Positions 15,721 through 58,307 of a DNA stretch of 64,000 nt are shown piece by piece (position 1 is the stretch's first letter; every line of letters begins with the position of its first letter). The stretch comes from an uncultured Bacteroidota bacterium. GTDB taxonomy: Bacteria; CLD3; SB21. The notes below the pieces were generated by a model. The model did no database searches. It was given only the letters and a program-made list of their open reading frames with translations, and was not told the origin of the DNA. The stretch is taken from the NCBI GenBank assembly GCA_964563165.1, contig CAZLWA010000097.1, forward strand, positions 71,893 to 135,892, in the 5' to 3' direction. Both the position numbers and the translations under genes were made by a program.

Positions 15721-15803
15721 CATTTGGTCATTTAGTCATTCGGTCATTTTGTGATTGAAATTCGAAAATGACAAAATGACTTAATGGTCAAATGACTAAA
15801 TAA
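15721..15803. promoter_or_regulatory. ~85-bp imperfect palindrome built from four GTCATTT / AAATGAC half-sites per arm, between the ubiD-like stop and the ymdB-like start
   Basis: ATTTGGTCATTTAGTCATTCGGTCATTTTGTGATT-gaaattcg-AAAATGACAAAATGACTTAATGGTCAAATGACTAAAT. The arms match at about 30 of 38 positions. Confidence 0.5.
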
Positions 15804-22007: not shown

Positions 22008-24149
22008 TTACTCGAATTTGTATTCGACTTTGGTCGTGATTTCCGGGCGTACGCGTACGGTGATCTCGTAAAATTTTGAGAAATTGGGGTGCGTGAACCG
22101 GATCTTGTGAAAACCCGGCTGAATTTCAATGACGCCGGGCGTTTGGCCATCGTCGCGCAAAACCGTATTGATGTAAATTTGTGCACCGGGCGGGTTGGTC
22201 GTACATTCCAGAAATCCGTTCGGATTTAAGAAAACAACCGTCGTTTGCGTCGTATCGTTTTTATCAACCTTGACCGACTTTATTTTCTTCTCCTTCTTAT
22301 TAACTGCTTTGATTTTATGTATGCTCGCCAGAAGCCTGGGAATATACACCGGCGCAGTTCCTGCCAGTGTTTCGCTGTCGTCCAGATAAACTTCGGCTCC
22401 CGTCGGATTGGATTTGACCAGCAGGACTCCGTACATCGGCTTCAAGGAGTCCGATAACTCAATGGTTGAATCCGCTTTGATGAAAAGTTTTCTCTCCACA
22501 TCTTCATATCCGTCCAGGTGCACGATGACATTTTGCTCGCCGACTTCGACGCTGTACTTGTTGGATTTGGAATTACGATACATCTTTTTTCCGCCGACGA
22601 TCAATGACACGGTTTCCGGGAAGGCTTTTTCAAGGGAAACCGTTCCGCGTAATTTCTCAAGAAATGCATCTATTTGGTTCAACCGGTATTTCCGGAGCGA
22701 AACGTTCTTCTTGGTGGTCACATGATCTTCTTTGGAAAATAACAACGTGTAATTTCCTCCCGGAAAAGGAAAATTCTCTATCGGCGTATAACCGATAAAT
22801 CTTCCGGAACTCGTTTCCACTTTCGCCATTTTGGGTACCGACGTAATCGTGAAATACGACGTATCGATGCCCGGCCGGATTTCCACAGGAGACAATTTGA
22901 GGTTGGCGTTCACTTCTTTGCCTTCACCCGTCGCAAAAATCAAGTCCGTCTCATACGTATCATAAAATTCGCGTTTAATGACGAGTCTATGTTCACCGCT
23001 GCCGATGCTGTCGATCCTCAAGATATTTCCGGCGGCAGCTATTTCGGTGCCGTCAATCGTGACCGTTGCATCCGGCACATTGATGGTCACCAGCAGCGAC
23101 GCGGGTTTTTTACCCGATTTCGATAAACTGCTTGAAGTCGAGCGGCCAAATGTGACCATCACAATGAGAAGTGCGGTGGCAATAAATGAATAAATAGACA
23201 GGCCAACCAGGAGCTGTTTGTAATCCAGGACCTCAAGGGCTTTTCGGATAACCGTATCGGTAAGATTCTCATTCTTGGCTTTGTCCGCGGCGGGAGCAGG
23301 CTGGGTCATGGTCAGCGTGAGTTCAACCCGGCGAATGTCCTGTGCCAAAAAATCCACCGTGCGGTAGCGTTCATCGGCATTACGGCGCAGCGCGCGCGAA
23401 ATGATAGTGTCAAAAACGGGTGGCACCAGCGGATTCACGACGCTGACCGGCGTTGGGTTTTCGTTGACGACCTTGTACATAACTTCCGTTAAATTGGCGC
23501 CCGTGAAGGCCTTGCGCTGAGTCAGTAATTCATAGAATACGGCGCCAAGTGAAAAGATATCCGCGCGATGATCGACCGGTCTTCCGGTGATCTGCTCCGG
23601 CGACATATATCCCGGCGTACCGAGAATCGTTCCGACCACAGTGTTAGTCGAGGTGGTCACTTTCGCAATTCCGAAATCCATGATCTTGGCGCTGCCGTCG
23701 TTCGTCACAATGACATTCGCAGGCTTGATATCGCGGTGAATCACGCCATTTTTGTGTGCGTAGCTCAAGCCGTCGCAAATGTGGAGCATGATCTCGATCA
23801 TACGATTGACCGGCAGCTCCGGTTCGTTTTCGATGATCTGTTCCAGCGTTTTTCCTTCGACGTATTCCATCGCGATGTATGTGGTGTCGCCGTCCTCTTC
23901 CACATCAAATATGGTGACAATATTGGGATGCGACAGCTTGCCGGCAAATTGCGCCTCGTGAAGAAACCGTTCACGAAATTCTTTAATTCTTTCCTCGGGT
24001 ACTTCCCCTTGCAGCTGCAGCGTTTTGATCGCAACGACGCGGTCGATCTTTTCATCCAGCGCTTTATACACGATCCCCATCGCGCCCTGGCCGAGCACGC
24101 TGACGATCTTAAACCGGCCGAGTCTCTCAATTTTAGAATCGTTGGGCAT
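22008..24149 (-). CDS. Hanks-type Ser/Thr protein kinase with a TM segment and C-terminal PEGA-like repeats
   Basis: Kinase motifs are GQGAMGIVYKA, VAIK, HRDIKPANV, DFGIAK and GTPGYMSPE. A TM helix lies around residue 310. The C-terminal repeats are of the type SNPTGAEVYLD… and TNPPGAQIYIN…. Confidence 0.8.
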   Translation of the reverse strand: MPNDSKIERLGRFKIVSVLGQGAMGIVYKALDEKIDRVVAIKTLQLQGEVPEERIKEFRERFLHEAQFAGKLSHPNIVTIFDVEEDGDTTYIAMEYVEGKTLEQIIENEPELPVNRMIEIMLHICDGLSYAHKNGVIHRDIKPANVIVTNDGSAKIMDFGIAKVTTSTNTVVGTILGTPGYMSPEQITGRPVDHRADIFSLGAVFYELLTQRKAFTGANLTEVMYKVVNENPTPVSVVNPLVPPVFDTIISRALRRNADERYRTVDFLAQDIRRVELTLTMTQPAPAADKAKNENLTDTVIRKALEVLDYKQLLVGLSIYSFIATALLIVMVTFGRSTSSSLSKSGKKPASLLVTINVPDATVTIDGTEIAAAGNILRIDSIGSGEHRLVIKREFYDTYETDLIFATGEGKEVNANLKLSPVEIRPGIDTSYFTITSVPKMAKVETSSGRFIGYTPIENFPFPGGNYTLLFSKEDHVTTKKNVSLRKYRLNQIDAFLEKLRGTVSLEKAFPETVSLIVGGKKMYRNSKSNKYSVEVGEQNVIVHLDGYEDVERKLFIKADSTIELSDSLKPMYGVLLVKSNPTGAEVYLDDSETLAGTAPVYIPRLLASIHKIKAVNKKEKKIKSVKVDKNDTTQTTVVFLNPNGFLECTTNPPGAQIYINTVLRDDGQTPGVIEIQPGFHKIRFTHPNFSKFYEITVRVRPEITTKVEYKFE

Positions 24150-36001: not shown

Positions 36002-38122
36002 GTGCCGATACAAAAACTTGGAAGATACGAAGTGGCAGAAGTTCTGGGCCAGGGCGCCATGGGCATCGTGTATAAAGGCATTGACCCGAAGATCGGACGC
36101 ACGGTAGCGCTCAAAACGCTCAAGACCACGGGAGAAATTCCTGCCGATCAGCTCTCCGAATTCAAACGCCGCTTTTCACAGGAAGCTCAATCCGCCGGAC
36201 GTCTCGCGCATCCTAATATTGTAACGATCTACGATGTCGGTGAAGAAGAAGGTCTCGCCTACATTGCCATGGAATTCATTAAAGGCAAGGCGCTCGACGA
36301 ATACATCGCTGAGAAGCATGCGTTCACGATCGACCAGATTGTGAGTATCATGACGCAGATTTGCGAAGGACTGGGCTACGCGCACAAGAACGGTGTCATT
36401 CATCGCGATATTAAACCGGCAAATATCGTTCTCACCGACGATAAGGTTGCCAAGATTACCGATTTCGGCATTGCAAAGATTACTTCCATGAGCGCCACGC
36501 AAAGCGGTGTGGTCGTCGGCACTCCCAGCTATATGTCACCGGAGCAAATTACGGGTAAAGGCGTGGACAACCGCTCGGATATTTTTTCGATCGGTGCGGT
36601 ATTTTATGAATTGCTGACTCACGAAAAAGCGTTTCCAGGCGACAATATCACGACCGTCATGTACCGTGTCGTGCACGAAAACCCCGCGCCGGTCACCAGC
36701 ATCAATATGGCGGTTCCGACGCAATTCACTCCCATACTGCTCAAAGCCATGGCAAAAAACCCTGCCGACCGTTACCCCGATGCGGAGACCATGTCAAAAG
36801 ATATTCAAAATTATAAGGCCTTCACGGCGATGCAATCGGGGGCCACACAGGTATTTCGCCCCGATTCGGCCGGAACGGTCATGATGACCGGCGCTGCGGA
36901 TGTTGGTGCAGTAACATCGGGCGGCATGCTGCAATCTGCGGTGAAAAACAAAAAGCTCCTGATACTTTCAGGCACAGCAGTGGCGGCGTTAATCGTTCTC
37001 TTATTTCTCGTTTTTGGAAATAAAGCGCCCTCGAATTCCGCGTCGCTCGAATTGAGTTTGAATATCTTTGACGGTACGGTGCGCGTCGATTCAGCGGATT
37101 TCAATATTGATAATGGAAAGCTGTTTATTCCCAAATTGGAAGCATCCGAACACTCCGTCAATATCAAGCACGAGGGCTACGAAGAATTCAAGACGAAACT
37201 CCTGTTCGCCGAAAACGAACAGAAAACATTCAATGTGGAAATGAAATTACTCCCTGTGCAGTTCCCTGCGGGTGTGGACACCGGCTTCATCACGGTCAAT
37301 GCGAAACCCGCAGTCGTAAAGGTTCTCACCAACGCCGGGGCTTTTATTTGTTACTCACCGGTGAACAAGCTGCCTTTTCCTGTTGGAAAGCGCACACTGG
37401 TTTTTTCGAGAGAGAATTATGTCAGTAAGGTGCTGGATATCGACCTGAGAAAGAAAAGAGAATTGAAACTTACACCTTCGCTCGATGCCAAGAAGGGACT
37501 TATTTCATTGGCCGATGTCAATCCGAAAAAAGTTCAAGTATTTGTGGATAATAATTTGCTCAAACCTGAAAAAGACGGCGTCACGTACACTCTGCAGATC
37601 GGAAAGCAGAAAATTCTACTGAAACAAGACGGTTTCAAGCCTCTCGAAAAGGAAATTACGGTTTCTGAAAAAGATGTTCTAAAGATCGACGCCAGCCTCG
37701 AACAGTTGTACGGCAAGCTTGCCATCACATCCAATCCGGACGGCGCCGATGTATTCATTGACGGCAGCAACGTAGGAAAGACTCCGCTCACTCTCGAATC
37801 CGTTGCAGCCGGTGTGCGCGACATTAAAGTTCAAAAAGGGGCGATGACGTCCATTAAAAAAATTACGGTGGCCGAGGGTAAAGAAAACTCCGCGGATTTT
37901 AAATTGCAGGCGCTAGTCGGGTACTTGAAATTTCTCATCAATCCGTGGGCAAAGATTTATATCGACGGCCGTGAATACGGCGCTTCGCCGCCGCTCGATA
38001 ACCTGGAATTGAAACCCGGAACGTATAAGATCAAGATGGAAAATCCTGCGTTCAAAGCGGTGACCAGGACAGTCACCATTACGGCCGGCGCGAGCGCAAC
38101 GCTGCAGTATGATTTCAAATAA
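36002..38122 (+). CDS. Hanks-type Ser/Thr protein kinase with a TM segment and C-terminal PEGA-like repeats (paralogue of 22008-24149)
   Basis: It has GQGAMGIVYKG, HRDIKPANIV, DFGIAK and GTPSYMSPE. A TM lies around residue 320. The C-terminal repeats are ITSNPDGADVFIDG… and INPWAKIYIDG…. Its N-terminal 300 aa are alignable by eye to the other kinase. Confidence 0.8.
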   Translation: MPIQKLGRYEVAEVLGQGAMGIVYKGIDPKIGRTVALKTLKTTGEIPADQLSEFKRRFSQEAQSAGRLAHPNIVTIYDVGEEEGLAYIAMEFIKGKALDEYIAEKHAFTIDQIVSIMTQICEGLGYAHKNGVIHRDIKPANIVLTDDKVAKITDFGIAKITSMSATQSGVVVGTPSYMSPEQITGKGVDNRSDIFSIGAVFYELLTHEKAFPGDNITTVMYRVVHENPAPVTSINMAVPTQFTPILLKAMAKNPADRYPDAETMSKDIQNYKAFTAMQSGATQVFRPDSAGTVMMTGAADVGAVTSGGMLQSAVKNKKLLILSGTAVAALIVLLFLVFGNKAPSNSASLELSLNIFDGTVRVDSADFNIDNGKLFIPKLEASEHSVNIKHEGYEEFKTKLLFAENEQKTFNVEMKLLPVQFPAGVDTGFITVNAKPAVVKVLTNAGAFICYSPVNKLPFPVGKRTLVFSRENYVSKVLDIDLRKKRELKLTPSLDAKKGLISLADVNPKKVQVFVDNNLLKPEKDGVTYTLQIGKQKILLKQDGFKPLEKEITVSEKDVLKIDASLEQLYGKLAITSNPDGADVFIDGSNVGKTPLTLESVAAGVRDIKVQKGAMTSIKKITVAEGKENSADFKLQALVGYLKFLINPWAKIYIDGREYGASPPLDNLELKPGTYKIKMENPAFKAVTRTVTITAGASATLQYDFK

Positions 38123-38851: not shown

Positions 38852-40777
38852 GTGGCTTCTTTAGTTTTGGTCGACAAGGACAATACCGGTCAGCGTTTCA
38901 TCGTTGAAAAAAACGAAATGACGATCGGCCGCAAACCCGAAAACGATTTTCTTATTTCCAATGTGATGATATCCGGCAAGCACGCGAAAGTAACGAAAAA
39001 TAAAAGTCAATTTTTCATCACCGATCTCAACAGCACCAATGGCACGTTTGTTAACGGCACACGTATCGTGGCACAGACGGAAATCAAGCATAAGGACCGG
39101 ATAAACTTGGGCGCCGTCAACCTGATTTTTCTTGAAGACGACAGCGCCACCATTGAATTCGATAAACTTCAGGGACCGCCGAAAGAAACGCCGTTGATGA
39201 AGCCCGAAGACACAAGCTACGCGACGCAAGTGAATTCGGAAAAATTGGCAGCCATGGTGCAATCGCTGAAGACCATCGTTCTGAGCGGCGCGGCGGACCG
39301 AAACGCGCTCACAAATCAATTCACGGAATTGGAGCACTCCTTTCAGCTGCTCAACAATCAATTGAAAGAATCGGAGAAGTTTCAGCAGAAACTCAACGTG
39401 CTTTACGAAGTCGGTAAAATAATTAACCACATTCTCGACCAGGACGAATTATTAAAGACCATTCTAGATCTGGCGCTGAAAGTAATGAAGGCCGATTGCG
39501 GCTTTATCATGCTTTACAACGATAAGAACGAACTGGAAGCAAAGATTTCCCGCAAGATCGAGGCGGATGAAATCGGCACGTCTTCGGCGACATTCAGCAC
39601 GACGATTTCCAAGCGGGTCGCTGAAACGGCTGAGAGTATCTTGACGTCGGACGCTCAGAATGACGACCGCTTTCAAAGCGGTGCAAGCATTATCTCCCAT
39701 CACATTCGCTCCGTGATCTGCACGCCCATGAAAAATAAGGACCAGAAGATCATTGGCGTGATTTACGTCGGATCCAATGTGATGTCCAACGTGTTCTCCA
39801 AGAGCGACGTGGAATTGCTGGAAGCCTTTTCGAATCACGCGGCCATCTCGATCGAGAACGCCAAGTTGTACGAAGAACGGCGCCGTAAGGAACATCTGAA
39901 GAGCGCGCTGGAACGTTACGTATCCAAGCAAATTGCCGAAGCGATCATTGACAAAGACGGATCCGGCGAAGTTCGCTTTCAGCCGGAAAAAAAACAAGTC
40001 ACGCTCGTTTTCACCGACGTTCGCGGGTTTACAACCCTGGCCGAGGGAATGAGTCCTGAAGATATGGTTGAAATCCTGAACCGGTACTTCACGGAAATGA
40101 TCAAGATCATTTTCAAGTACGGCGGGACCTTGGACAAATTCATCGGCGATGCCATCATGGCGATGTTTGGGGCGCCCGCTTCAACCGGACAGGACGCGCC
40201 GAACGCCGTCATGGCGGCGCTGGAGATGCAGAAGGAACTCATCGTTTTTAATGAAGAACAGAGAAAGTTGAAAAAACCGGCAATAAAAATCGGCATCGGA
40301 ATCAATACGGGTACGGTGGTCGTTGGCAATATCGGATCCGATCAGCGTATGGAATATACGGCCATCGGTGATACGGTGAATTTGGCGTCGCGCCTGGAGG
40401 GAGCCAATAAAGAATACAGTACCAATATCATGATCAGTGAATGGACACTCGAAGCGGTCAGCCGCATTGTGATTACGCGTGAATTGGATCTAATACGCGT
40501 CAAAGGCAAGGAAAAACCTGTTAAAGTATTCGAAGTCCTGGGATCTGCCTCGGACGGCATATCCTCAGATATGAAGAAAACCACCGAGTTATTCAGCCAG
40601 GGTTTAGCCGCTTATCGAAAGCAGAAATGGGATGAGGCGATCGGCCACTTCAATGCCGCCCTGGAAGTCAAGCCGGATGACGGGCCGTCGAAAGTCTATG
40701 TCGAACGCTCCGAAGTATTCAAAAAGAACCCGCCGGCGGGAAAGTGGGACGGCGTATTCACGATGCTCACAAAATAA
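38852..40777 (+). CDS. FHA - coiled-coil - GAF - class III adenylyl cyclase - C-terminal TPR multidomain protein (GTG start)
   Basis: The FHA domain includes …TIGRKPENDFLISNVMISGKHAKV…TDLNSTNGTFVNG. The GAF domain includes LYEVGKIINHILDQDELL…. The cyclase domain has VTLVFTDVRGFT, …LDKFIGDAIMAMFG and …IGDTVNLASRLE. Lys in LDKFIGD occupies the adenine-specifying position. It lies 15 nt after the lipoprotein stop. Confidence 0.8.
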   Translation: MASLVLVDKDNTGQRFIVEKNEMTIGRKPENDFLISNVMISGKHAKVTKNKSQFFITDLNSTNGTFVNGTRIVAQTEIKHKDRINLGAVNLIFLEDDSATIEFDKLQGPPKETPLMKPEDTSYATQVNSEKLAAMVQSLKTIVLSGAADRNALTNQFTELEHSFQLLNNQLKESEKFQQKLNVLYEVGKIINHILDQDELLKTILDLALKVMKADCGFIMLYNDKNELEAKISRKIEADEIGTSSATFSTTISKRVAETAESILTSDAQNDDRFQSGASIISHHIRSVICTPMKNKDQKIIGVIYVGSNVMSNVFSKSDVELLEAFSNHAAISIENAKLYEERRRKEHLKSALERYVSKQIAEAIIDKDGSGEVRFQPEKKQVTLVFTDVRGFTTLAEGMSPEDMVEILNRYFTEMIKIIFKYGGTLDKFIGDAIMAMFGAPASTGQDAPNAVMAALEMQKELIVFNEEQRKLKKPAIKIGIGINTGTVVVGNIGSDQRMEYTAIGDTVNLASRLEGANKEYSTNIMISEWTLEAVSRIVITRELDLIRVKGKEKPVKVFEVLGSASDGISSDMKKTTELFSQGLAAYRKQKWDEAIGHFNAALEVKPDDGPSKVYVERSEVFKKNPPAGKWDGVFTMLTK

Positions 40778-42115: not shown

Positions 42116-43774
42116 ATGAAACTGCTTATGGCGCTGCTGGTTGTCGGATTCCTTAGTACAGACGAATCGGCTCATTCTCAAGACAAAAAGTACTGGATCT
42201 TTTTTCGCGATAAAGAAATTGACAAACCTTCCGAATTAAATCTTTCCAAAAGAACCCTCCAGCGCCGTTTGAAAGCAACGTCACCGGTCTCGGACGATTA
42301 CGACATTCCGGTCTCTCGTTCCTACATCGAGAAGATCCGCGCGATGAATGTTTCCGTGCACCATCAATCACGATGGCTCAATGCGGTGAGCGTGAACATG
42401 AACGATGAGCAGAGATCAGCGGTCATGCAATTGCCATTTGTGAAAGCGGTTAGGACGGTTGCGCGGGCGTTGAAAAATAAAACAGCAAAAATAAGCCGCG
42501 CCGTAAATCGTGGTTCATCCGTGGCCGTTCCGGATTACGGGTTCTCTCTTGTTCAAAACAAGATGATCAATACGGTTGCCGCGCATCAAATGGGGTACAG
42601 CGGCGTAGGTGTTGTCATCGGTATGATGGATACCGGATTTAATCTGGATCACAAAGCCCTTCGCTATATTCACGTCTCGGGTCAGTACGATTTTGTCGAT
42701 CAGGACACCATTGTTTCAGAAGGAATTCCGGGCGATAAACAGCGTCACAGTCACGGCACGCAGGTACTATCGGCGATAGCCGCCTATGATAATGGAAATT
42801 CTATCGGAACGGCTTTCGGGGCGTCGTATCTGTTAGCGCGCACCGAAAACGACGACGGCATAGGACAAAAGGCGGAAGAAGATCAATGGATAGCGGGATT
42901 GGAATGGCTTGAACAACAAGGCGCGGATATCGTCAGCAGCTCGATCAGTTTTTTCGACGATTTCCAAAATGCGTCCGACAATTATCATCTTTCCGATCTC
43001 GACGGTTCTACCGCACTCACAACCATTGCGACTGCCATCGCGTTTGACAAGGGCGTTCTCGTTCTCAATTCCGCCGGCAATATGGGTGACCGCGGGCCTA
43101 AATATTTAGGTACCCCTTCGGACGGAAAAAAAATGATCGCCGTGGGCGCCGTTTACAGCGACAGCACGGTCACCGACTTCAGCTCCCGCGGGCCCACAGC
43201 CGACGGCAGAAAAAAACCGGACCTTGCGGCCCTGGGTTCCAGCGTTGCCGTCGTGGATGCGGGTGATACCTCGGCGTATTCTTTCGAAGCCGGCACGTCG
43301 TTGTCTGCGCCGCTGGTTGCCGGACTGGCGGCATTGGTCCTGGAAGCTCATCCGGCATGGTCTGCGAGACAACTGTATAATGCAATCCGGAAAACTTCCA
43401 GCCGGGGTTCGCATCCGGATAACCTCATCGGGTACGGCATTCCTGACGCCGTCAAGGCCATTAATTATCTTTCATACAACCATTCAAATATTCAAATCCA
43501 GGATATCAGCAATTTTCCAAACCCGGGCAGCGAAACAATCTCTATTCAATTCAGATCGCTTTTGACAGCCGCATTTTCAATTCAAATCTACAACGCACTC
43601 GGACAATTAGTTGCGACCCTTGCAAAAAATGAACCGGCAGTAATAAATCAGACCATACGTAAAGTTTGGAGCGGAAGGAATGATCAGGGTATGAAGGTAA
43701 GTTCAGGAGTCTATTTCTATCAGATCACGATGGCCGGAGAGTCTATCACACAGAAAATTCTATTGGTGAAGTGA
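42116..43774 (+). CDS. subtilisin-like serine peptidase (S8) with a type IX secretion system C-terminal sorting domain
   Basis: It has a signal peptide. The catalytic motifs are D (MMDTGFNLDH), H (HGTQV) and S (GTSLSAPLVAG). The C-terminal ~80 aa (…NFPNPGSETISIQF…SGVYFYQITMAGESITQKILLVK) resemble a Por/T9SS CTD. Confidence 0.8.
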   Translation: MKLLMALLVVGFLSTDESAHSQDKKYWIFFRDKEIDKPSELNLSKRTLQRRLKATSPVSDDYDIPVSRSYIEKIRAMNVSVHHQSRWLNAVSVNMNDEQRSAVMQLPFVKAVRTVARALKNKTAKISRAVNRGSSVAVPDYGFSLVQNKMINTVAAHQMGYSGVGVVIGMMDTGFNLDHKALRYIHVSGQYDFVDQDTIVSEGIPGDKQRHSHGTQVLSAIAAYDNGNSIGTAFGASYLLARTENDDGIGQKAEEDQWIAGLEWLEQQGADIVSSSISFFDDFQNASDNYHLSDLDGSTALTTIATAIAFDKGVLVLNSAGNMGDRGPKYLGTPSDGKKMIAVGAVYSDSTVTDFSSRGPTADGRKKPDLAALGSSVAVVDAGDTSAYSFEAGTSLSAPLVAGLAALVLEAHPAWSARQLYNAIRKTSSRGSHPDNLIGYGIPDAVKAINYLSYNHSNIQIQDISNFPNPGSETISIQFRSLLTAAFSIQIYNALGQLVATLAKNEPAVINQTIRKVWSGRNDQGMKVSSGVYFYQITMAGESITQKILLVK

Positions 43775-50801: not shown

Positions 50802-50849
50802 GACTTAAGCAATGAGACTTTCGTGTTTTTTGCCGGACCTATAAAAAAA

Positions 50850-50946
50850 GCCCAAGCTTGTTACGGCACATCCAAGGATACGCCTACCGTTGCTTCCTTC
50901 CGGACCTGGCGGGGTTCAGCTGCCTCAAATTGCGTAAGGCTCGGGC
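50850..50946 (-). ncRNA. ffs: signal recognition particle RNA (small bacterial 4.5S type)
   Basis: The minus strand carries the conserved domain IV motif CCAGGTCCGGAAGGAAGCAACGG. The 5' GCCCGAGC pairs with the 3' GCTTGGGC, followed by a T7 tract. Its position immediately upstream of dnaX is the common ffs-dnaX arrangement. Confidence 0.8.
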
Positions 50947-51067: not shown

Positions 51068-52342
51068 TCAATTCTTATGAGGATCTCTATATCTCACGGT
51101 TCCCGTAAGGATCGGAATGGCGATGCTGACGAGTACTGTGAAGACAAACATACCCATTGCCCAGATGCCGAGACCGACGCATAATTCGACCCACGTCGGG
51201 GAATATTCGACGATCTTTCCCCACGGTCCGGGAATGAATCCTGGAACGATCAAACCCATCCCCTTTTCAATCCAGATACTGACAAAGAGTATCCCGCACG
51301 CGGGGAGCAGCCACTTACGATTGTTTCGAAGCGGGTGAAGAGTCAGAATTCCCGTCGCGATGAGATTCATCGAAATCGCCGTCCATATCCAGGGCTTCAA
51401 TCGGTCAAACCCCTCCAGTCCGAAAAACAGATACACGGCACTTTCACTGTGATGCGTGGGTTTGTAAAATTCTTTAAAGAGCTCAGAACCGAGCATAATC
51501 AGATTGATTTGCGCGGCGACGGTTACGATCAGGGCAATCTTGCCGATGGTTACATTTTCAACCCAATAGGCCGTGAATCTCCTGACTACGGAGAGCACAA
51601 TGATAATCAGCGCAGGACCCGCAGAAAATGCCGACGCCAAAAATCGCGGACCCAGTAACGACGAGTTCCAAAAAGGCCTCGCCGGTAAACCCGCGTATAA
51701 AAACGCCGTAACAAGGTGAATACAGAAAGCCCAAAAGACGGAAATGATCACGCCCGGTACGTACACCTTAGGATTAGGATGCTTGCCCTGGTAATGGCAC
51801 ATCAGAATATAAAACGGAATTGTCAGATTGAGAAACAAATATCCGTTAAGAACAAGGACGTCCCAGGTGAGCATGGAGCTGGGCCAGTTCAATAGTCCGA
51901 TGCCGGGAATCAAATGCCATGCGCGGGCCGGACCGCCTAAGTCAACTGTCACGAACGCCAGACACATGCACAACGCGCCCACCGCGACTCCTTCACCGAT
52001 CAATACTGCTTTTGAAAAATCCAGGTCCTTCAGAATATAGGTTGGCAATACGAGCATCACGGCAGCCGCCGCAACGCCTACGAGAAAAGTGAAATTGGAA
52101 ATGTAAAATCCCCAACTCACACGATCGTTCATACCGGTCACGCCTAAACCCTCACGCAGCTGAACGGAGTAGGCGTATACGCCAACCAGCATCACAAAAG
52201 TAAGCGTGCCCATCCAAACGTGATAAGCTAGGCCTCCGCGCGTAATGCTGTTGAAAGCATCTTTAATAAACGATAAGACGATCGTTGGCCTTATGTCGTC
52301 CGTGATTTTTCCGGCCGTGTGCGGCGATTCGGTGTGTTCCAT
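51068..52342 (-). CDS. NrfD/PsrC-family polytopic membrane quinol-interacting subunit
   Basis: It is 424 aa with about 10 TM helices. It lies 3 nt downstream of the Fe-S subunit gene. Confidence 0.75.
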   Translation of the reverse strand: MEHTESPHTAGKITDDIRPTIVLSFIKDAFNSITRGGLAYHVWMGTLTFVMLVGVYAYSVQLREGLGVTGMNDRVSWGFYISNFTFLVGVAAAAVMLVLPTYILKDLDFSKAVLIGEGVAVGALCMCLAFVTVDLGGPARAWHLIPGIGLLNWPSSMLTWDVLVLNGYLFLNLTIPFYILMCHYQGKHPNPKVYVPGVIISVFWAFCIHLVTAFLYAGLPARPFWNSSLLGPRFLASAFSAGPALIIIVLSVVRRFTAYWVENVTIGKIALIVTVAAQINLIMLGSELFKEFYKPTHHSESAVYLFFGLEGFDRLKPWIWTAISMNLIATGILTLHPLRNNRKWLLPACGILFVSIWIEKGMGLIVPGFIPGPWGKIVEYSPTWVELCVGLGIWAMGMFVFTVLVSIAIPILTGTVRYRDPHKN

Positions 52343-52345
52343 AAA

Positions 52346-53296
52346 CTAATCCATAAAGTACCAAAATTTGGGCTCTGTCCCGAGATCGTCCTTGAGCCGG
52401 AATACTTTCTTATTGGCCAGCACCCAACGAATTTCGCTATCGGGATCAAGTAAATTACCAAAAATACGCGCTCCCGTGGGACACGCTTCGACGCAGGCAG
52501 GATTCTTTCCTTCGCGCGTGCGCTGAATGCAGAATGTGCATTTTTCCATTACGCCCTTTTTGCGCAGCCGGTTGCCAAGATAGTGCTGGCTGTGATTGAT
52601 CTCATTTTCCGGAATAACAGGATCCGCCCAATTGAATCGCCGTGCATCGTACGGGCAAGCAGCCTCACAATAGCGGCATCCGATGCACCAATTGTAATCC
52701 ACGACGACGATACCGTCCTGTTCTTTCCAGGTTGCCTGCACGGGACACACATCCACACAAGGTGGATTTTCGCAGTGCATACATTGCGTTCCAATATAAA
52801 AATGCCCGTCCTGCGGTACTTCATGATAAAAATCATCGGGCGCGTGTTCAAAATTAAGCTGACCCTTCTTATGTTCATGGACGGTAATGTATTGCATCCC
52901 TGACTCGCGGTCCTGATTATTTTCACGGATACAACCGCGGATACACTCGAGGTAACCCCGGCACTTGGAAATATTAAATGCATACCCGTACAGCACACCC
53001 GGAATCGGACCTTTCGCAGAGATGTTTACATGCTGCCCCGTGTTTATTTCATACATTTTCTCGAGCCGGCGAACCGTTTCTTCTTTTTCTTTCTCACTCA
53101 TCACACGGAAATTACCCTGAAAATAATCATCCCAATCGAGCTGAGCCTTCTCTCTTTCTTCAGCAGGAGCGAAAGGATTGCAAGCCGTTTGCAGCAAACC
53201 CATGCCGGTCAATAAGCCGGCGGCCAGCCCTTTCAGGGCGTCCCGGCGATTCACGTCTTTACTGAATTCGTGATCGGCGGTCGTTTCTGTATTCAT
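52346..53296 (-). CDS. Tat-exported 4Fe-4S ferredoxin-type subunit (NrfC/PsrB/ActB-like)
   Basis: The twin-arginine signal is NRRDALKGLAAGLLTGMGLL. There are four CxxCxxCxxxCP-type clusters (e.g. CMHCENPPCVDVCP, CIGCRYCEAACP, CTFC…CVEACP). The track ORF extends 66 codons further, to 53494, and that extension would bury the Tat signal. The likely start is MNTETT. Confidence 0.7.
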   Translation of the reverse strand: MNTETTADHEFSKDVNRRDALKGLAAGLLTGMGLLQTACNPFAPAEEREKAQLDWDDYFQGNFRVMSEKEKEETVRRLEKMYEINTGQHVNISAKGPIPGVLYGYAFNISKCRGYLECIRGCIRENNQDRESGMQYITVHEHKKGQLNFEHAPDDFYHEVPQDGHFYIGTQCMHCENPPCVDVCPVQATWKEQDGIVVVDYNWCIGCRYCEAACPYDARRFNWADPVIPENEINHSQHYLGNRLRKKGVMEKCTFCIQRTREGKNPACVEACPTGARIFGNLLDPDSEIRWVLANKKVFRLKDDLGTEPKFWYFMD

Positions 53297-53535
53297 AGGC
53301 AGTAGCGCGGGTGATTCGGAATACTGACTCCACAACAAAACATGATGAAGGCTCGGGATTTGCTTTAGATAATTCATCTCATCATCGCGTTTGAGCCAAT
53401 CGCCTAAGACATTTTCGGCAAGCAATTCCTGAATGCCCTTCTTTCGCAAATCGTCTCGGGAGTTGTTGCAGTTGTTACCGTTGTCGTTGTTCATCTCTTT
53501 TGATACCCTATTGGAACAGGTGTGATCAATTTTCC

Positions 53536-54177
53536 TTATTTGTTGCTAATTAGTCTTTTCATTGTAAGACTCGGCTGCACCGGCCAACGTTTATCCCAGA
53601 GGGGTTGATGCGGGTTGTGGCACTCAATGCACAACTTGACGACGCGCGGCGGAGCCCAGCCTCCGACCCGTTTACCGTGAGCCCCGCCCTTCCAGTCCGA
53701 AAATTGCTTGAAATGACATTGCTGACACAATTGGTAACTATGATCAAGAGTAATTTCATTTCCTGTTATGGATCGCAATGTATTTAAGTTTGATTCATCA
53801 TGACAGACGACGCAGCTCAATATAGTTTCGGGTGCGTGCTGAAGGTGTATATCCCAGTGGGCCTTACGTCCGGCTGGATCAGTTGACTTCATTTCTCTGA
53901 GCGGCTTGCTGTGACAATTGATGCAGGGAAATTTCATCAGTTGAGTCAATTGGTCTGTTCGAGAAATAACGGAGAGCACACTCGACATTCCCAAAACCTG
54001 CACCAGCCTGGCTCCGTCAACCGAAGCATGAAGATGTGCATAGACCGTTGAGTCCATTTTAGTTATTATTTCAAGCCTGTCCAGCAAGCTTTCGTGCTCA
54101 ATTTTTTTTCGGCATGCGGCCAGGCTGACGAGAACCAGCGCACAGACTATTCCTTTGGTTTTGACGAAGTTCAGCAT
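53536..54177 (-). CDS. tetraheme c-type cytochrome, lipoprotein
   Basis: It has four CxxCH motifs (CINCH, CVVCH, CQQCH, CIECH) and the lipobox LAAC. Confidence 0.7.
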   Translation of the reverse strand: MLNFVKTKGIVCALVLVSLAACRKKIEHESLLDRLEIITKMDSTVYAHLHASVDGARLVQVLGMSSVLSVISRTDQLTQLMKFPCINCHSKPLREMKSTDPAGRKAHWDIHLQHAPETILSCVVCHDESNLNTLRSITGNEITLDHSYQLCQQCHFKQFSDWKGGAHGKRVGGWAPPRVVKLCIECHNPHQPLWDKRWPVQPSLTMKRLISNK

Positions 54178-54211
54178 ATTATTTTAGAATGTTTCAGCCG
54201 AAAAATCCAAA

Positions 54212-54913
54212 TCATTGCAAATTGGATGAAGGCCTTGTCCAATCGGATTCTTCTTGAACAACGGCGTGGCATTGACGGCAATTGATCCGGTCGGGATGAG
54301 GTGTTCGAATTTCCTTAACCGATCCCGGCCCGCCGTGACAAGCAAGACAATTCTCCCGCATCTGCACTATATGCGGTATCTGCGGCGGGCTTCCGGACAT
54401 GGCCGAACGATTGATTCTCGGCGGATCCAGCGTTTTCCAATTGGTCTGTTTAAATAGTTCCTTAGTGCGAATGGGCACATGGCACTGACGGCAGCTCAGG
54501 AATTCCGGGTGAGGTGTGACGGGCGCGTACGCATTGAACTTGGGAACGAACCCTCCGTGTTCATGGCATTGCAAGCAGGTCTTACCGCCAAAACTTTTTT
54601 CATCCGCTACCTCATGCGGAATCACAGGCGGCGCCCCATCAAACGCGCGGCGTTGATAAAAGATTGCGAGTGTGCGTGAGCCTTGTTCCTTCACCGATTC
54701 CAAATAAGACAATGCCTGCGCTGCCCGCCGAAACACGCCGGATTCCTGAGGCAAAACCGGAGCACCGGTAACGCTGGTCTGACGCACGCTTGCTTCTCTC
54801 TTCGCGTGCAACACACTTTGGCCAATCACGTAAATCGTCGCGGCCATCAGGATCACACTCAACGTGATGAAGATGACACGGTTTTCGGGAATCAGGAGCT
54901 TTCTGAAATTCAT
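54212..54913 (-). CDS. membrane-anchored tetraheme c-type cytochrome (NapC/NirT/NrfH-like)
   Basis: It has an N-terminal TM helix and four CxxCH motifs (CLQCH, CRQCH, CLACH, CRQCH). It overlaps the napA stop by 4 nt. Confidence 0.65.
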   Translation of the reverse strand: MNFRKLLIPENRVIFITLSVILMAATIYVIGQSVLHAKREASVRQTSVTGAPVLPQESGVFRRAAQALSYLESVKEQGSRTLAIFYQRRAFDGAPPVIPHEVADEKSFGGKTCLQCHEHGGFVPKFNAYAPVTPHPEFLSCRQCHVPIRTKELFKQTNWKTLDPPRINRSAMSGSPPQIPHIVQMRENCLACHGGPGSVKEIRTPHPDRINCRQCHAVVQEESDWTRPSSNLQ

Positions 54914-57219
54914 GCTTTTTCCACTTTAACCGCGCACTTCTTATAATCGGGTTGTTTAGAGATCGGACAAAACGCATCTAAAGTCAACTCGTTGATCAGA
55001 AAAGCTTCATCAAAGAATGGCACGAAGACCATTCCCTGCGCAGGCACTCCCCGCTCATTGATTGATGCTTTCATTACGATCATTCCCCGGCGCGACGTGA
55101 GGCGAACCTTTTCACCGTTGCGGATACCTAATTTCGCAGCGTCGTTCGGATTCAGTTCCACGTAGGATGAGGGCACTGCCTGATGCAGGACGGGGATTCT
55201 CTGTGTCATTGAACCGCTATGCCAATGTTCAAGAACGCGTCCCGTATTGAGCCAGAAAGGATACTCGCCATCGGGTTCCTCCGGCGGATGTTCGTACGGC
55301 CGAATCCAAATCCACGCCTTTCCGTCGGGTTTACCGTAAAAATCATACGAATCACCTTGAGCCGCCGGATCGTACAAAGCATTGTACCGCCATTTTGTTT
55401 CCTTTCCGTTAGGACACGGCCACAACACACCCGGACTGGCTTTCAGTGCGTCATACGTCGCCATTTCATGTTTAGGTCCTTCGTGGAACTTGCGATATTC
55501 GTTCCAAATTTCTTGAACATAATTATTCTTGTCCCAAGGAAATAAATTTTGATAGCCTAGTCGTCGTGCCACTTCAATCATCGCCCAGGCGTCCGCGATG
55601 CATTCACCGGGAGGCTGCAGCATTTGCTCAAAATGCTGTGTGCGACGCTCGGAATTGCCGAACATCCCTTCACGTTCAATCCACATCGCGCTTGGTAAAA
55701 TCACGTCGGCAATGTCGGTCGTCGGAGTCGGATAGACATCGGATACAACGATAAAGCGATCTTCCTTTTTTGCTGCGTCTCGATAACGTTTGAGTTTCGG
55801 CATAGTAACCATGGGATTAGTTACCTGAATCCACATGAATCGAATTTCTCCGCGGTCAAGCGCGCGGAACATTTCAACGGTGTGATAGGTTGGTTTTGAG
55901 GGAATTTTCTCGACCGGAACTTTCCAGATTTCTGCTGCAATCTTGCGGTCGTGTTCATCCGTTACCACTCCGTGAGGCAATCGGTTGGTGAAGCAACCCA
56001 CCTCGCGCGCGGTCCCGCAGGCGCTGGGTTGCCCTGTAAGCGAAAACGGACTGTTACCCGGAGAGGAGATTTTACCAAGAAGCAGATGAATATTATACAC
56101 CAGATTCTGAATCCAGGTTCCGCGGGTATGCTGATTCATTCCCATACACCAGAAACTCATTACTTTTTTGTTGGGATCCCCGTAAAGAGACGCCATGAAC
56201 TTGATGTCCTTCGAAGAAACACCGGAAATTTTCTCAACGGCTTCCGGCTTATAATCTTCTAAGAATTTCTTGTATTCTTCAAACGTCGCTTCTTTGGCTT
56301 GATCTTCAAAAGTAAATTTATCATCCAACCCGTACCCGATATCGGTTTTACCGCGTTTGAATACCGTGTGCTTCTCTATAAAGTTCTTGTTGATCCATCC
56401 GTTGCGAATGATTTCGTAACAAATGGAATTGGCGACGGCGAGATCGGTTTGCGGATTGAAAATGATCGAACGGTCGGCGGCCATGCTGGTGCGCGTAGTG
56501 CGCGTCGCAAAATCAATTATTTTGACGTCGCGGCGCAGCCGTTGGTCAAGTAATCTTGAAAACAAAACCGGGTGCATTTCCGCCATATTATTGCCCCACA
56601 GGAAAAAGACATCGGCGTAATCCATGTCATCATAGCAACCCATAGGTTCGTCCAATCCAAAAGTCGTCATAAATCCGGTTACCGCACTCGCCATGCAAAG
56701 GCGCGCATTGGATTCCAGATTATTAGTGCCGATTCCGCCCTTTAAGAATTTCGAAGCCACATAGCCGTCCGGAATCGTCCATTGGCCCGAACCGTAAATG
56801 GCGACGGCATCTTTACCATGCTGATCTATGGTCTCTTTCATTTTTTGAGCAATGAGGTCCAGTGCTTCTTCCATGGTCGTTTCAACCATCCTGCCGTTTT
56901 TACGCACCATTGGTTTCGTCAGGCGGTCCTTGCCGTATAACGCCATCACGGAATGGTAGCCTTTGACGCAACAAAGCCCGCGATTGACGGGGCTGGATAA
57001 ATCGCCTTGAACGGCAACCGCCCGCCCCTTAGAGAGCCCGATCAAGAGCCCGCAGCCCGTTCCGCAAAAACGGCAAGGTGATTTTTTCCACGTAATCGCC
57101 TCGTCCGGCAGCATGTTTTCCAGGCGGCTTTCCGAAAAAATAATGCCGGGAAAGAGAGAAGCGGCCGCGCTCATTGCAGTAAATGCAACCATGTCCTTTA
57201 GTGCTTTACGACGATTCAT
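54910..57219 (-). CDS. napA: periplasmic nitrate reductase catalytic subunit (molybdopterin, Tat substrate)
   Basis: The Tat signal is MNRRKALKDMVAF. The N-terminal [4Fe-4S] motif is SPCRFCGTGCGLLIG…GDLSSPVNRGLCCVKGYH, the NapA signature. At 769 aa it is in the size range of monomeric NapA. Confidence 0.85.
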   Translation of the reverse strand: MNRRKALKDMVAFTAMSAAASLFPGIIFSESRLENMLPDEAITWKKSPCRFCGTGCGLLIGLSKGRAVAVQGDLSSPVNRGLCCVKGYHSVMALYGKDRLTKPMVRKNGRMVETTMEEALDLIAQKMKETIDQHGKDAVAIYGSGQWTIPDGYVASKFLKGGIGTNNLESNARLCMASAVTGFMTTFGLDEPMGCYDDMDYADVFFLWGNNMAEMHPVLFSRLLDQRLRRDVKIIDFATRTTRTSMAADRSIIFNPQTDLAVANSICYEIIRNGWINKNFIEKHTVFKRGKTDIGYGLDDKFTFEDQAKEATFEEYKKFLEDYKPEAVEKISGVSSKDIKFMASLYGDPNKKVMSFWCMGMNQHTRGTWIQNLVYNIHLLLGKISSPGNSPFSLTGQPSACGTAREVGCFTNRLPHGVVTDEHDRKIAAEIWKVPVEKIPSKPTYHTVEMFRALDRGEIRFMWIQVTNPMVTMPKLKRYRDAAKKEDRFIVVSDVYPTPTTDIADVILPSAMWIEREGMFGNSERRTQHFEQMLQPPGECIADAWAMIEVARRLGYQNLFPWDKNNYVQEIWNEYRKFHEGPKHEMATYDALKASPGVLWPCPNGKETKWRYNALYDPAAQGDSYDFYGKPDGKAWIWIRPYEHPPEEPDGEYPFWLNTGRVLEHWHSGSMTQRIPVLHQAVPSSYVELNPNDAAKLGIRNGEKVRLTSRRGMIVMKASINERGVPAQGMVFVPFFDEAFLINELTLDAFCPISKQPDYKKCAVKVEKA

Positions 57220-57476
57220 GTTGAAACTCCAGTTGTTTCCGGCATCGGATCTTCTTCGTAACCCGACACCAGCGCCAAGAATTTAAGTTCGTTCACGGAC
57301 TGTAAGAGTTGTTCTAATTCCTCTTCGGACTCTTGGTTCGGCGTATCGGTGACCAAGATCAGGAGATATTGATTTTGAGACGGAATGACCTCACAGCCGG
57401 GAATATTGCCAAGAACCCGACTCAACTCACTCCGCTTTCCGTCCGTAGGATAAGCAAGATAGCTCTTGATTGGCAT
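57216..57476 (-). CDS. napD: NapD-like chaperone for NapA
   Basis: It is 86 aa with …IPGCEV… and an acidic C-terminal half. It overlaps the napA start (ATGA). Confidence 0.6.
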   Translation of the reverse strand: MPIKSYLAYPTDGKRSELSRVLGNIPGCEVIPSQNQYLLILVTDTPNQESEEELEQLLQSVNELKFLALVSGYEEDPMPETTGVST

Positions 57477-57525: not shown

Positions 57526-57686
57526 AGACTTGTAGAATAAGTTAAGAAATTAGCTTTCGCAAAACCATGACAAAAGTCATGTTATTTTGAATTTTTTAAC
57601 TTTTGAATGATTGAAATGCAGAAAGCTCAGAAACAGAGGTTAGATGGCTCGATCTTATCTTGCCAAAAGCTGATTCCATGCCTAAT

Positions 57687-57743: not shown

Positions 57744-58307
57744 TTAGATCAAGCCCTTATTCATTGCTTCACGCGCCGTCATGCCGCCGGCCATTGCCAC
57801 TATCTGATTGTCATAATGATCGGCAATTCTTGCTACGGACTTGAGCGAGGCCGCTAATTCATTTTCATCCAGATGCGCGCCCGCCAAAGAATGGCCGAAT
57901 ACAATGGTTCCGTCATAGGTAATTCCAAACGCGCCGAAATGCAGTTTCGCATTTTCCCTCAATAAGAATTTCAATAATTCGTCATTCAAGCGTGCGTCTT
58001 GAACGACATACGCAAACGATTCCACAACGACATCGTCGCCGTGCCACGGGCGAAGAACCGTCTGTACGACTGTTGAACCTTCAAAGGTCAGGAAACGGCC
58101 ATCCTGCTTTTGGTAATTCTTCTTGTAAAGTTTCTTGATGAAGGCCTCGACTTTGATTTCAACGCTCTTCATCAATTGCGCATGGTTCATTTTGGGCGCT
58201 TTCTTGGCGGATTTCCTCGGGGCTGTCTTTTTTGCTTTCGGCTTTGCCTTTTTGCCTGCCTTTTTAGCCGCCGGCCGTTTCGCTTTTCTATTTTTTTTCT
58301 TTGCCAT
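57744..58307 (-). CDS. YbjN-like domain protein with a 39 aa lysine/alanine-rich histone-H1-like N-terminal tail
   Basis: The tail MAKKKNRKAKRPAAKKAGKKAKPKAKKTAPRKSAKKAPK has 20 K/R in 39 residues. The remaining ~145 aa resemble YbjN / T3SS-chaperone-like proteins. Confidence 0.5.
   Translation of the reverse strand: MAKKKNRKAKRPAAKKAGKKAKPKAKKTAPRKSAKKAPKMNHAQLMKSVEIKVEAFIKKLYKKNYQKQDGRFLTFEGSTVVQTVLRPWHGDDVVVESFAYVVQDARLNDELLKFLLRENAKLHFGAFGITYDGTIVFGHSLAGAHLDENELAASLKSVARIADHYDNQIVAMAGGMTAREAMNKGLI

Follow-up and report, generated by a model that had tools for sequence, protein, structure and literature searches.

A widespread six-gene nap cassette in which an NrfD-type module and two tetrahaem cytochromes probably link menaquinol to periplasmic nitrate reductase

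Periplasmic nitrate reductase (Nap) is usually taught as a non-electrogenic system in which the catalytic subunit, NapA, is fed by NapC or NapGH. How might NapA receive its electrons in a gene cluster that carries neither? We took up this question at a nap locus in a 64,000-nucleotide stretch of DNA from an uncultured Bacteroidota bacterium (contig CAZLWA010000097.1; the whole stretch is hereafter called the window), where a napD-like gene and napA are followed by genes for two tetrahaem cytochromes c, an iron–sulfur (Fe–S) protein and an NrfD-like membrane subunit. We conclude, with a probability of roughly 0.78, that the six genes are a single operon encoding a Nap system fed from menaquinol through the Fe–S protein, the NrfD-type subunit and the two cytochromes. 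The cluster is confirmed as a real feature: the strength of the NapA match and the repetition of the six-gene order in other genomes are far beyond chance. An earlier reading of the same letters, the original prediction, had proposed a hybrid quinol-to-NapA electron route here, and all six of its open reading frames were recovered, every one on the minus strand:

57216..57476, minus strand: napD-like gene (86 amino acids), recognized by comparison with the NapD family and by its position before napA
54910..57219, minus strand: napA (769 amino acids), recognized by NCBIfam equivalogs, Pfam domains and motifs
54212..54913, minus strand: cyt1 (233 amino acids), cytochrome with four CXXCH motifs, an N-terminal anchor and a Pfam NapB match
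53536..54177, minus strand: cyt2 (213 amino acids), cytochrome with four CXXCH motifs and a lipobox
52346..53494, minus strand: Fe–S subunit (382 amino acids), with Pfam Fer4_11 and DsrO as the best NCBIfam model
51068..52342, minus strand: NrfD-like subunit (424 amino acids), with Pfam NrfD and ten hydrophobic segments

The genes are tightly packed. From napD to the NrfD-like gene the intergenic distances are −4, −4, 34, 41 and 3 bp, the first being a 4-bp overlap between the end of the napD-like gene and the start of napA. A consensus scan of the window placed no terminator-like site in any of the five intergenic gaps; the sites that it did report across the window were all weak and fewer than in shuffled sequence. 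A tblastn-type search with E. coli queries detected no homologue of NapC, NapG, NapH or NapF in the 64-kb window, in line with the predicted absence of NapGH and NapF.

NapA is the best-defined member of the cluster. The 769-residue protein passed both NapA equivalog cut-offs, those of NF010055 (979 bits, 904 required) and TIGR01706 (953 bits, 930.55 required). Fdh-alpha (491 bits, cut-off 666), NasA (386, cut-off 1000) and NasC (380, cut-off 1100) fell far under theirs, and we rejected Nas and Fdh as identities of this protein. Among sequences of solved structures, the nearest were the NapA proteins of C. necator (809 bits), E. coli (802 bits) and R. sphaeroides (758 bits), with C. jejuni (685 bits), D. 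desulfuricans (616 bits) and FdhF (374 bits) lower. By profile and structure-sequence scores alike, the protein thus sides with NapA rather than branching away from it. Three Pfam domains are present (Molybdop_Fe4S4, Molybdopterin and Molydop_binding), and alignment with E. coli NapA (49.6% identity over 764 positions) showed that the motifs CRFCGTGCG, NARLC175MASAV, LTGQPSACGTAREVG and TGRVLEHWHSGSMT are kept; the protein is shorter than its E. coli counterpart mainly through one missing 42-residue insert. Its N terminus bears the twin-arginine translocation (Tat) motif MNRRKALK, in which RRKALK occupies residues 3–8, and the [4Fe–4S] motif reads C49-x2-C52-x3-C56...C84. Cys49, Cys52, Cys56, Cys84 and Cys175 are invariant in 74 orthologues, and Cys175 lies in NARLCMASAV, the motif with the molybdenum-ligand cysteine, which E. 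coli NapA shares at the aligned position. These features identify the napA product, as first read from its Tat signal and cluster motif, as the predicted Tat-exported catalytic subunit of a periplasmic nitrate reductase with a molybdenum bis-pyranopterin guanine dinucleotide (Mo-bisPGD) cofactor and one [4Fe–4S] cluster.

The 86-residue protein encoded just upstream of napA has no signal peptide, and its gene holds the same place in 72 loci. When orthologues were searched, 23 of 25 matched Pfam NapD (PF03927; best E = 2.1e-07) and none matched any other family consistently. In hhalign the whole length of the family aligned with E. coli NapD (82% probability, E = 1e-05, 66 columns), and its profile scored 19 bits on that protein. 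We read this open reading frame, as had been suggested, as a divergent NapD, which probably acts in the cytoplasm as a chaperone for the Tat signal peptide of NapA.

A survey of one genome per GTDB species, made by pattern scan with one narrow probe, found relatives in 457 species genomes; we fetched 80 loci with up to 8 kb of flanking sequence and compared them by tblastn with the six proteins of the window. Wherever a locus was of sufficient length, it contained all six genes on one strand and in unchanged order, in keeping with the idea of a hybrid quinol-to-NapA route. Identity to the window protein across the 80 loci was highest for NapA (66–84%), the NrfD-like subunit (61–87%) and the Fe–S subunit (55–81%), followed by cyt1 (43–73%), cyt2 (35–59%) and NapD (32–65%), and the median intergenic gaps in 69–74 loci were 2, 4, −4, 11 and 18 bp. 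Almost no NapC, NapG, NapH or NapF was found in the flanks of this set. The cyt1 family by itself comprises more than 3,000 clusters at 90% identity in public data.

Carriers belong to at least eight phylum-level groups. Within the Bacteroidota they include Flavobacteriaceae (Tenacibaculum, Tamlana, Algibacter, Zhouia, Hanstruepera and Mariniflexile), Cyclobacteriaceae, Cytophagales, Saprospiraceae and Chitinophagales; beyond it we found Ignavibacteria, Kapaibacterium, Calditrichia, Gemmatimonadota, Rokubacteria, SAR324, Acidobacteriota (Bryobacteraceae and relatives) and Chloroflexota (Caldilineaceae and Anaerolineae). The loci nearest to the window are L004–L006. The high identity across phyla suggests that the whole cassette moves horizontally as a unit. 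In the window itself, the GC content of the cluster (0.47–0.50) is like that of the remainder and so gives no sign of a recent genomic island.

Some of these loci extend the pathway. Directly 3′ of the NrfD-like gene, nrfH and nrfA follow in three loci (L044, 11846–13957; L055, 13120–15227; L075, 12080–14286), all from Flavobacteriaceae, and both genes of L044 exceed their NCBIfam cut-offs. Judged by gene content, the nap cassette and nrfHA together would make each of these a complete locus for the conversion of nitrate to ammonium. In Hanstruepera flava (L002, 1–5272), molybdenum-cofactor genes lie immediately upstream on the opposite strand (MoaC/MoCF, MoaE, ThiF-rhodanese, ThiS-like, NTP_transf_3 and MoeA). 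One cultured carrier is the fish pathogen Tenacibaculum maritimum, whose NrfD-like protein falls into one 90%-identity cluster with that encoded in the Hanstruepera flava cassette. T. maritimum reduces nitrate, an activity that its genome paper credits to 'NapAB' (PMC5561996).

Which of the remaining proteins would hand electrons to NapA? The cytochrome encoded next to it, cyt1, has the architecture expected of an anchored tetrahaem protein, with a single N-terminal hydrophobic helix (about residues 13–31, an anchor conserved in the family) and four CXXCH motifs. The original prediction had called it NapC/NirT-like and had found no NapB in the cluster, and here both claims gave way. There was no match of cyt1 to Cytochrom_NNT (PF03264), its NrfH score was 22 bits against a cut-off of 134, and the family profile reached 3 bits on E. 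coli NapC; we rejected a NapC/NirT identity on these grounds and on the NapB-type repeats described below. The only Pfam matches above threshold were NapB, Cytochrome_C7 and Cytochrom_c3_2, with NapB (PF03892) at 29.4 bits against a cut-off of 25.1 over profile positions 40–73 of 127. The NapB hallmark PPxIPH...CxxCH...CxxCH occurs twice. Aligned in hhalign, the two repeats (residues 84–150 and 165–226) are 45% identical (99.3% probability, E = 1.9e-20), and their profiles scored 27.2 and 22.1 bits on E. coli NapB, as against 4–7 bits on NapC. In the reverse direction, tblastn with E. coli NapB on the window matched both halves of cyt1. Matches to sequences of solved structures were marginal (NapB 1OGY_B, E = 0.12), and the searches with cyt1 and cyt2 also gave a Geobacter cytochrome (E = 0.017).

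These repeats show that in cyt1 a NapB-like dihaem unit has been duplicated in tandem and tethered to the membrane, and NapB is thus present as a fusion. We class it as a NapB-like tandem fusion and not as NapB, which is a soluble dihaem protein, whereas cyt1 is predicted to have four haems and an anchor. Across 77 orthologues the eight haem-binding cysteines and four proximal histidines are invariant, as are exactly four more histidines (100, 135, 181 and 206) and no methionine, a pattern consistent with four bis-His haems. We propose that cyt1 docks on NapA as its direct electron donor.

The second cytochrome, cyt2, was correctly anticipated to be a tetrahaem lipoprotein: its 213 residues contain the lipobox SLAAC22 and four CXXCH motifs, and Cys22 is conserved in 99% of 74 orthologues. 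The same orthologues keep all four CXXCH motifs and four further histidines (107, 114, 167 and 190), and the four haems appear all to be bis-His. Its family signals stay under threshold (Cytochrom_NNT, 19.2 bits against 24.1; NrfH, 30.8 bits against 134), and the family profile finds no convincing similarity in E. coli NapB or NapC (2.5 bits on NapC). The faint, sub-threshold NapC/NrfH-like signal of the cluster thus lies in cyt2 and not in cyt1. We propose that cyt2 serves as a haem wire from the Fe–S subunit to cyt1.

The last two genes were predicted to encode an NrfC/PsrB-type Fe–S protein and an NrfD-family membrane protein, and family matches in Pfam and NCBIfam bear this out. The Fe–S subunit matches Pfam Fer4_11 and has no molybdopterin domain. 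Its best NCBIfam model is DsrO (NF045797) at 193.7 bits, just under the cut-off of 200, ahead of QrcC (151 bits), ArrB, TtrB and NrfC (125 bits, cut-off 378). The nearest solved structures are PsrB (2VPW_B), ArrB (6CZ7_B) and ActB (6F0K_B), with the alignment to ActB chains of about 930–1040 residues confined to their last ~150–210 residues. Fifteen invariant cysteines fall into four groups, of which group I reads C-x5-C-x3-C, a conserved Tyr181 taking the place of the second cysteine. In NarH, FdnH and PsrB, group I ligates FS1, the cluster most distant from the membrane subunit; with three cysteines in this group, we infer that FS1 would be a [3Fe–4S] cluster, or a cluster with an unusual ligand, placed at the exit to the cytochromes.

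The expectation of a Tat-dependent four-cluster ferredoxin held for the four cysteine groups and the twin-arginine motif, and failed for the position of that motif, RRDALKGL, which starts at residue 83 (Arg83 and Arg84 are conserved) and not at the N terminus. Upstream of the arginine pair, no stop codon interrupts the frame for a median of 75 and a minimum of 39 codons (59 loci), against about 21 codons by chance in our estimate, so the N-terminal extension is probably genuine. The extension spans 82 residues in the window and a median of 55 in orthologues, 53 of 73 of which carry a CxC...C motif in it (TCGCGNASGGCHS in L002, GGCGCGGGGCGC in L034); the window copy is degenerate, with one cysteine left. 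In 70 of 73 orthologues there is a cysteine after the hydrophobic region (in the window Cys105, just past that region and 91% conserved), which suggests a Tat-exported, lipid-anchored lipoprotein.

The membrane subunit matches Pfam NrfD (PF03916) with E = 2.4e-30 (106.7 bits, cut-off 25.8). It has ten hydrophobic segments, as predicted for an NrfD-family protein of about ten transmembrane helices, and no haem or Fe–S motifs. In NCBIfam it scored 406 bits on DsrP (NF045798), above the cut-off of 350, with QrcD at 50 bits and TtrC at 26, and it did not match the NrfD equivalog. ActC of alternative complex III (ACIII; 6F0K_C) was the nearest solved structure (E = 3.6e-13), and PsrC was not among the three chains of solved structures matching at E ≤ 0.001. 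With DsrP and ActC as best matches, we group the subunit with the ten-helix ActC/DsrP proteins and not with Psr or Nrf. The prediction of a Psr/Nrf/ACIII-type module thus stood for ACIII, with ActC and DsrO/DsrP the best matches, and fell for Psr and Nrf. We also considered whether the pair could be NapGH, and rejected this: the Fe–S family profile gave 5.5 bits on E. coli NapG, and the NrfD-like profile gave −1.9 bits on E. coli NapH, no meaningful match. We propose that the NrfD-like subunit holds the menaquinol-oxidizing site.

Taken together, the families, cofactor motifs and export signals point to the route menaquinol, NrfD-like subunit, Fe–S subunit, cyt2, cyt1, NapA and nitrate as the most likely one, a Nap system wired like E. 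coli NrfABCD. In this scheme, NapD would retain the NapA Tat signal peptide until cofactor insertion, and NapA, once exported by Tat, would reduce nitrate to nitrite in the periplasm. The cofactor-less NrfD-like subunit would oxidize menaquinol near the periplasmic face of the membrane, and the electrons would cross the four clusters of the Tat-exported ferredoxin, including FS1 with its three cysteine ligands, probably a [3Fe–4S] cluster. From there they would pass through the four bis-His haems of cyt2 and then the four of cyt1, one NapB-like unit of which would dock on NapA as NapB does and so feed the [4Fe–4S] cluster and the molybdenum centre. We infer that the proteins act as one complex and that cyt2 precedes cyt1.

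The parallel with E. coli NrfABCD lies in the sequence of parts: a cofactor-less NrfD-type subunit, a Tat-exported ferredoxin with four cysteine groups, a multihaem cytochrome c and a soluble periplasmic reductase. The two differ in the terminal enzyme (molybdenum-containing NapA here, haem-containing NrfA there) and in the cytochromes, two tetrahaem proteins here, one anchored and NapB-like and one a lipoprotein, as against the soluble pentahaem NrfB. They also differ at the family level, with an NrfC score of 125 bits against a cut-off of 378 and no match to the NrfD equivalog, and in a membrane subunit of ten helices where eight are predicted for E. coli NrfD (PMC8076601).

With canonical Nap operons (napEDABC, napFDAGHBC/napDAGHB, napAGHBFLD and napCMADGH), the cassette shares adjacent NapD and NapA and a NapB-type haem domain as likely donor. 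It departs from them in having no NapC, NapG, NapH, NapF, NapL or NapE, in the assignment of quinol oxidation to an NrfCD-type pair, and in a NapB unit that is tandem-duplicated and membrane-anchored. A 2026 Nap review recognizes four operon types, napEDABC, napDAGHB, napCMADGH and napAGHBFLD, none of which is the six-gene order (PMC13223375), and a 2021 review of the NrfD family covers 15 complexes, none with Nap (PMC8076601). A 2025 paper on NapA phylogeny mentions neither Bacteroidota nor NrfD, and the nap layouts reported in the literature for Caldithrix, Thermosulfurimonas, Deferrivibrio and Desulfurivibrio are other ones. Suarez et al. (2023) noted multihaem cytochrome, 4Fe4S and nrfD genes downstream of nap in Planctomycetota and KSB1 metagenome-assembled genomes, an arrangement that they regarded as unlike any described NrfD complex (PMC10732223). 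Their clusters, possibly related to the six-gene cassette, differ in coming from two such genomes, in including actD and in having been reported without analysis of cytochromes, distribution or mechanism (PMC10732223). We found no description of this six-gene nap operon type in the literature searched, which took in subscription-journal reviews only in part, and an earlier mention may exist.

The strongest competing explanation is a 'mini-ACIII': the last four genes would specify a general quinol:cytochrome c oxidoreductase that merely lies beside napDA, so that NapA would be one client or none and several periplasmic reductases (NrfA, NirK/S, NosZ, cbb3 oxidase) would be served. ACIII itself has features in common with the cassette: besides the ActC match and the alignment of the ferredoxin with the C-terminal part of ActB, both systems would carry quinol electrons to c-type haems on the periplasmic side, and both have one three-cysteine group. 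Subunits of ACIII carry lipid anchors. The differences lie in a ferredoxin that has no molybdopterin-like domain, in the three-cysteine group, which is group I here and group III in ActB, in the lack of an ActD, ActE or ActF equivalent or a second NrfD-like gene in the operon, and in cytochromes unrelated to pentahaem ActA. We rejected membership of ACIII itself for a 382-residue ferredoxin without the molybdopterin domain in an operon without ActD/E or a second NrfD-like gene. A generic role gains from the wide use of the cytochrome, Fe–S and NrfD build in ACIII, Qrc, Nhc and DsrJOP (PMC8076601), from the occurrence of multihaem cytochrome–4Fe4S–nrfD clusters beside nar, nxr, cox and porin-cytochrome genes (PMC10732223), and from the nrfHA genes that follow the cluster in three loci. 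However, the four genes trail napDA in every long-enough locus, in the same order and with near-zero spacing; cyt1 resembles NapB in particular, the dedicated partner of NapA; and the adjacent nrfA comes with its own NrfH. We judge the generic role unlikely.

A second alternative moves the site of quinol oxidation: cyt2 would be the real quinol dehydrogenase, cyt2–cyt1–NapA would work like NapC–NapB–NapA, and the Fe–S and NrfD-like proteins would be accessory or a second entry point. The sub-threshold NrfH and Cytochrom_NNT matches of cyt2 point this way, as do the names of some orthologues at JGI ('nitrate/TMAO reductase-like tetraheme cytochrome c subunit') and the precomputed PF03264 assignments of many. 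In NapC and NrfH, however, a transmembrane helix carries the quinol site, whereas cyt2 has a lipoprotein signal in its place, with the near-invariant Cys22; haem 1 of NrfH is not bis-His, whereas all four cyt2 haems apparently are; and the family profile is all but silent on E. coli NapC. NrfD-family subunits, moreover, are established quinone-interacting modules (PMC8076601). These points make a quinol dehydrogenase role for cyt2 very improbable.

Still less credible is a reading in which the Fe–S and NrfD-like proteins are DsrO and DsrP and serve sulfur metabolism. The scores invite it, with DsrP above its cut-off and DsrO just under, and RefSeq names the orthologue 'DsrMKJOP subunit DsrP' in Hanstruepera flava (WP_250436930.1), Tenacibaculum maritimum, Aquimarina and Algibacter. 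The DsrJOP module also has a comparable build, with a periplasmic cytochrome c, a ferredoxin and a ten-helix NrfD-like subunit, and its DsrO and DsrP are the best-scoring named families for the two proteins here. Differences are found in the context, in which no DsrM/DsrK, sulfur genes or trihaem DsrJ were recognized, and in the ferredoxin, with 15 cysteines against 16. Across the 80 loci and their flanking sequence (up to 8 kb), no dsrM, dsrK or dsrJ was recognized between or beside the six genes, a result that applies to those loci, no Dsr queries having been run on the window; the invariant neighbours are instead NapA and a NapB-like cytochrome. We rejected DsrP as the identity of the NrfD-like subunit on this missing dsrMKJO context, the score notwithstanding. 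Flavobacteriaceae and Cyclobacteriaceae, both among the carriers, are to our knowledge mostly aerobic heterotrophs, and we know of no sulfate reduction in either. DsrO has been reported to hold four [4Fe–4S] clusters (PMC8076601), whereas the Fe–S subunit has only 15 cysteines. The RefSeq label arises because the NF045798 cut-off is passed, as it is by the window protein, and in a nap gene context it is very probably a misannotation. Other RefSeq names are less specific, NapA orthologues often being called 'molybdopterin-dependent oxidoreductase' and NapD orthologues 'hypothetical protein'.

That the molybdoenzyme acts mainly on another oxyanion (chlorate, perchlorate or selenate) is scarcely believable: C. 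jejuni NapA does reduce chlorate and perchlorate (PMC12769810) and many RefSeq orthologues have only the generic molybdopterin name, but the window protein exceeds both NapA equivalog cut-offs, its active-site motifs are those of NapA, the carrier T. maritimum reduces nitrate (PMC5561996), and nrfHA adjoins some loci.

Several points weigh against our preferred reading of one menaquinol-fed nap operon. Synteny and homology are all that carry complex formation and the electron path. The AlphaFold2 models of cyt1 (mean predicted local distance difference test score (pLDDT) 56.6, 26-sequence alignment) and cyt2 (mean pLDDT 53.9, 30 sequences) are both of too low confidence to bear on NapB-like docking. 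On Pfam NapD, the window's own NapD-like protein scored 19.3 bits, under the gathering cut-off of 28. The proposed scheme leaves the N-terminal extension of the Fe–S subunit unexplained. Internal promoters are possible in the 34- and 41-bp gaps; a consensus promoter scan is uninformative for this organism. Finally, NapC, CymA or NapGH could be encoded elsewhere in the genome, their absence covering the 64-kb window.

The region upstream of napD speaks for a single transcription unit. It contains a perfect palindrome, read from the sequence:

57566..57581, no strand: palindrome CATGAC-TTTT-GTCATG (core TGAC-N4-GTCA), lying 103 bp 5′ of the napD start

We examined 68 upstream regions, from the window and 67 loci. 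Within 270 bp 5′ of napD, a TGAY-N4-RTCA palindrome was present in 35 of them, whereas shuffled sequences averaged 1.3 such regions and never exceeded 6, and in most of the 35 it lies 50–103 bp from the napD start. Its half-site spacing fits a regulator of the CRP/FNR family, for which we consider it a candidate binding site; the regulator itself is surmised from this fit. Enrichment of the palindrome favours one regulated promoter ahead of napD, from which the six genes would be transcribed, probably under CRP/FNR-family control. The palindrome sits in an A+T-rich spacer of about 200 bp between napD and a hairpin with a T-run (~57719–57688, spotted by eye), which follows a YbjN-like gene ending at 57744.

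What would such a system mean for nitrate respiration? We regard the cassette as a widespread, uncharacterized and partly misannotated variant of the Nap system. Proton coupling has been proposed for ACIII and Psr, and standard midpoint potentials give, by our estimate, a driving force of about 0.5 V between menaquinol and nitrate. Ion translocation has been proposed for all NrfD-type subunits (PMC8076601), and Qrc has been shown to be electrogenic (PMC6303296). By analogy, the cassette could be a fifth major Nap class, and an energy-conserving one, in which the ten-helix NrfD-like subunit couples menaquinol oxidation to proton translocation or to an electrogenic proton path; we put this forward tentatively and as the less probable outcome. 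If it were true, Bacteroidota, Gemmatimonadota, Acidobacteriota and Chloroflexota with only this Nap would gain a proton motive force yield comparable to that of Nar, and the tethered double-NapB and lipoprotein cytochromes would keep NapA in a fixed supercomplex. In marine Flavobacteriaceae, in T. maritimum, in soil Acidobacteriota and Gemmatimonadota, and in Rokubacteria, nitrate reduction may yield more energy than has been assumed.

Environmental surveys score napA and napB only, and the cassette marks a large, phylogenetically wide set of bacteria with a different quinol-oxidizing module. With labels as misleading as DsrP, 'molybdopterin-dependent oxidoreductase' and 'hypothetical', automated reconstructions can miss nitrate reduction or invent sulfur metabolism. 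The cassette would also add a Nap member to the NrfD-family complexes, and its cultured carriers, such as T. maritimum, Zhouia amylolytica, Algibacter luteus and Tamlana fucoidanivorans, offer a tractable system for studying proton translocation by NrfD-type subunits during quinol oxidation.

Housekeeping genes flank the nap unit on both sides, the YbjN-like gene upstream and, downstream of the NrfD-like gene, a gene for signal recognition particle (SRP) RNA of the bacterial small type (50847–50946, minus strand; Rfam RF00169, 62.9 bits), with dnaX and recR beyond it. The YbjN-like gene (57744–58307, minus strand) encodes a 187-residue protein with a Lys/Ala-rich N terminus and YbjN/CesT-like chaperone domains in precomputed Pfam assignments; it had no NCBIfam match.

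Farther away, the window has a signalling-rich neighbourhood with no apparent link to nap (22008–24149, minus strand; 36002–38122, plus strand; 38852–40777, plus strand), comprising two Ser/Thr kinases with C-terminal PEGA domains and an FHA–GAF–adenylate/guanylate cyclase. A subtilase with a type IX secretion sorting domain (Por_Secre_tail/CHU_C; 42116–43774, plus strand) points to a source organism in or near the Fibrobacteres–Chlorobi–Bacteroidetes (FCB) group. A UbiD-family decarboxylase of 611 residues, possibly tied to quinone biosynthesis, is encoded at 15796–17631 on the minus strand.

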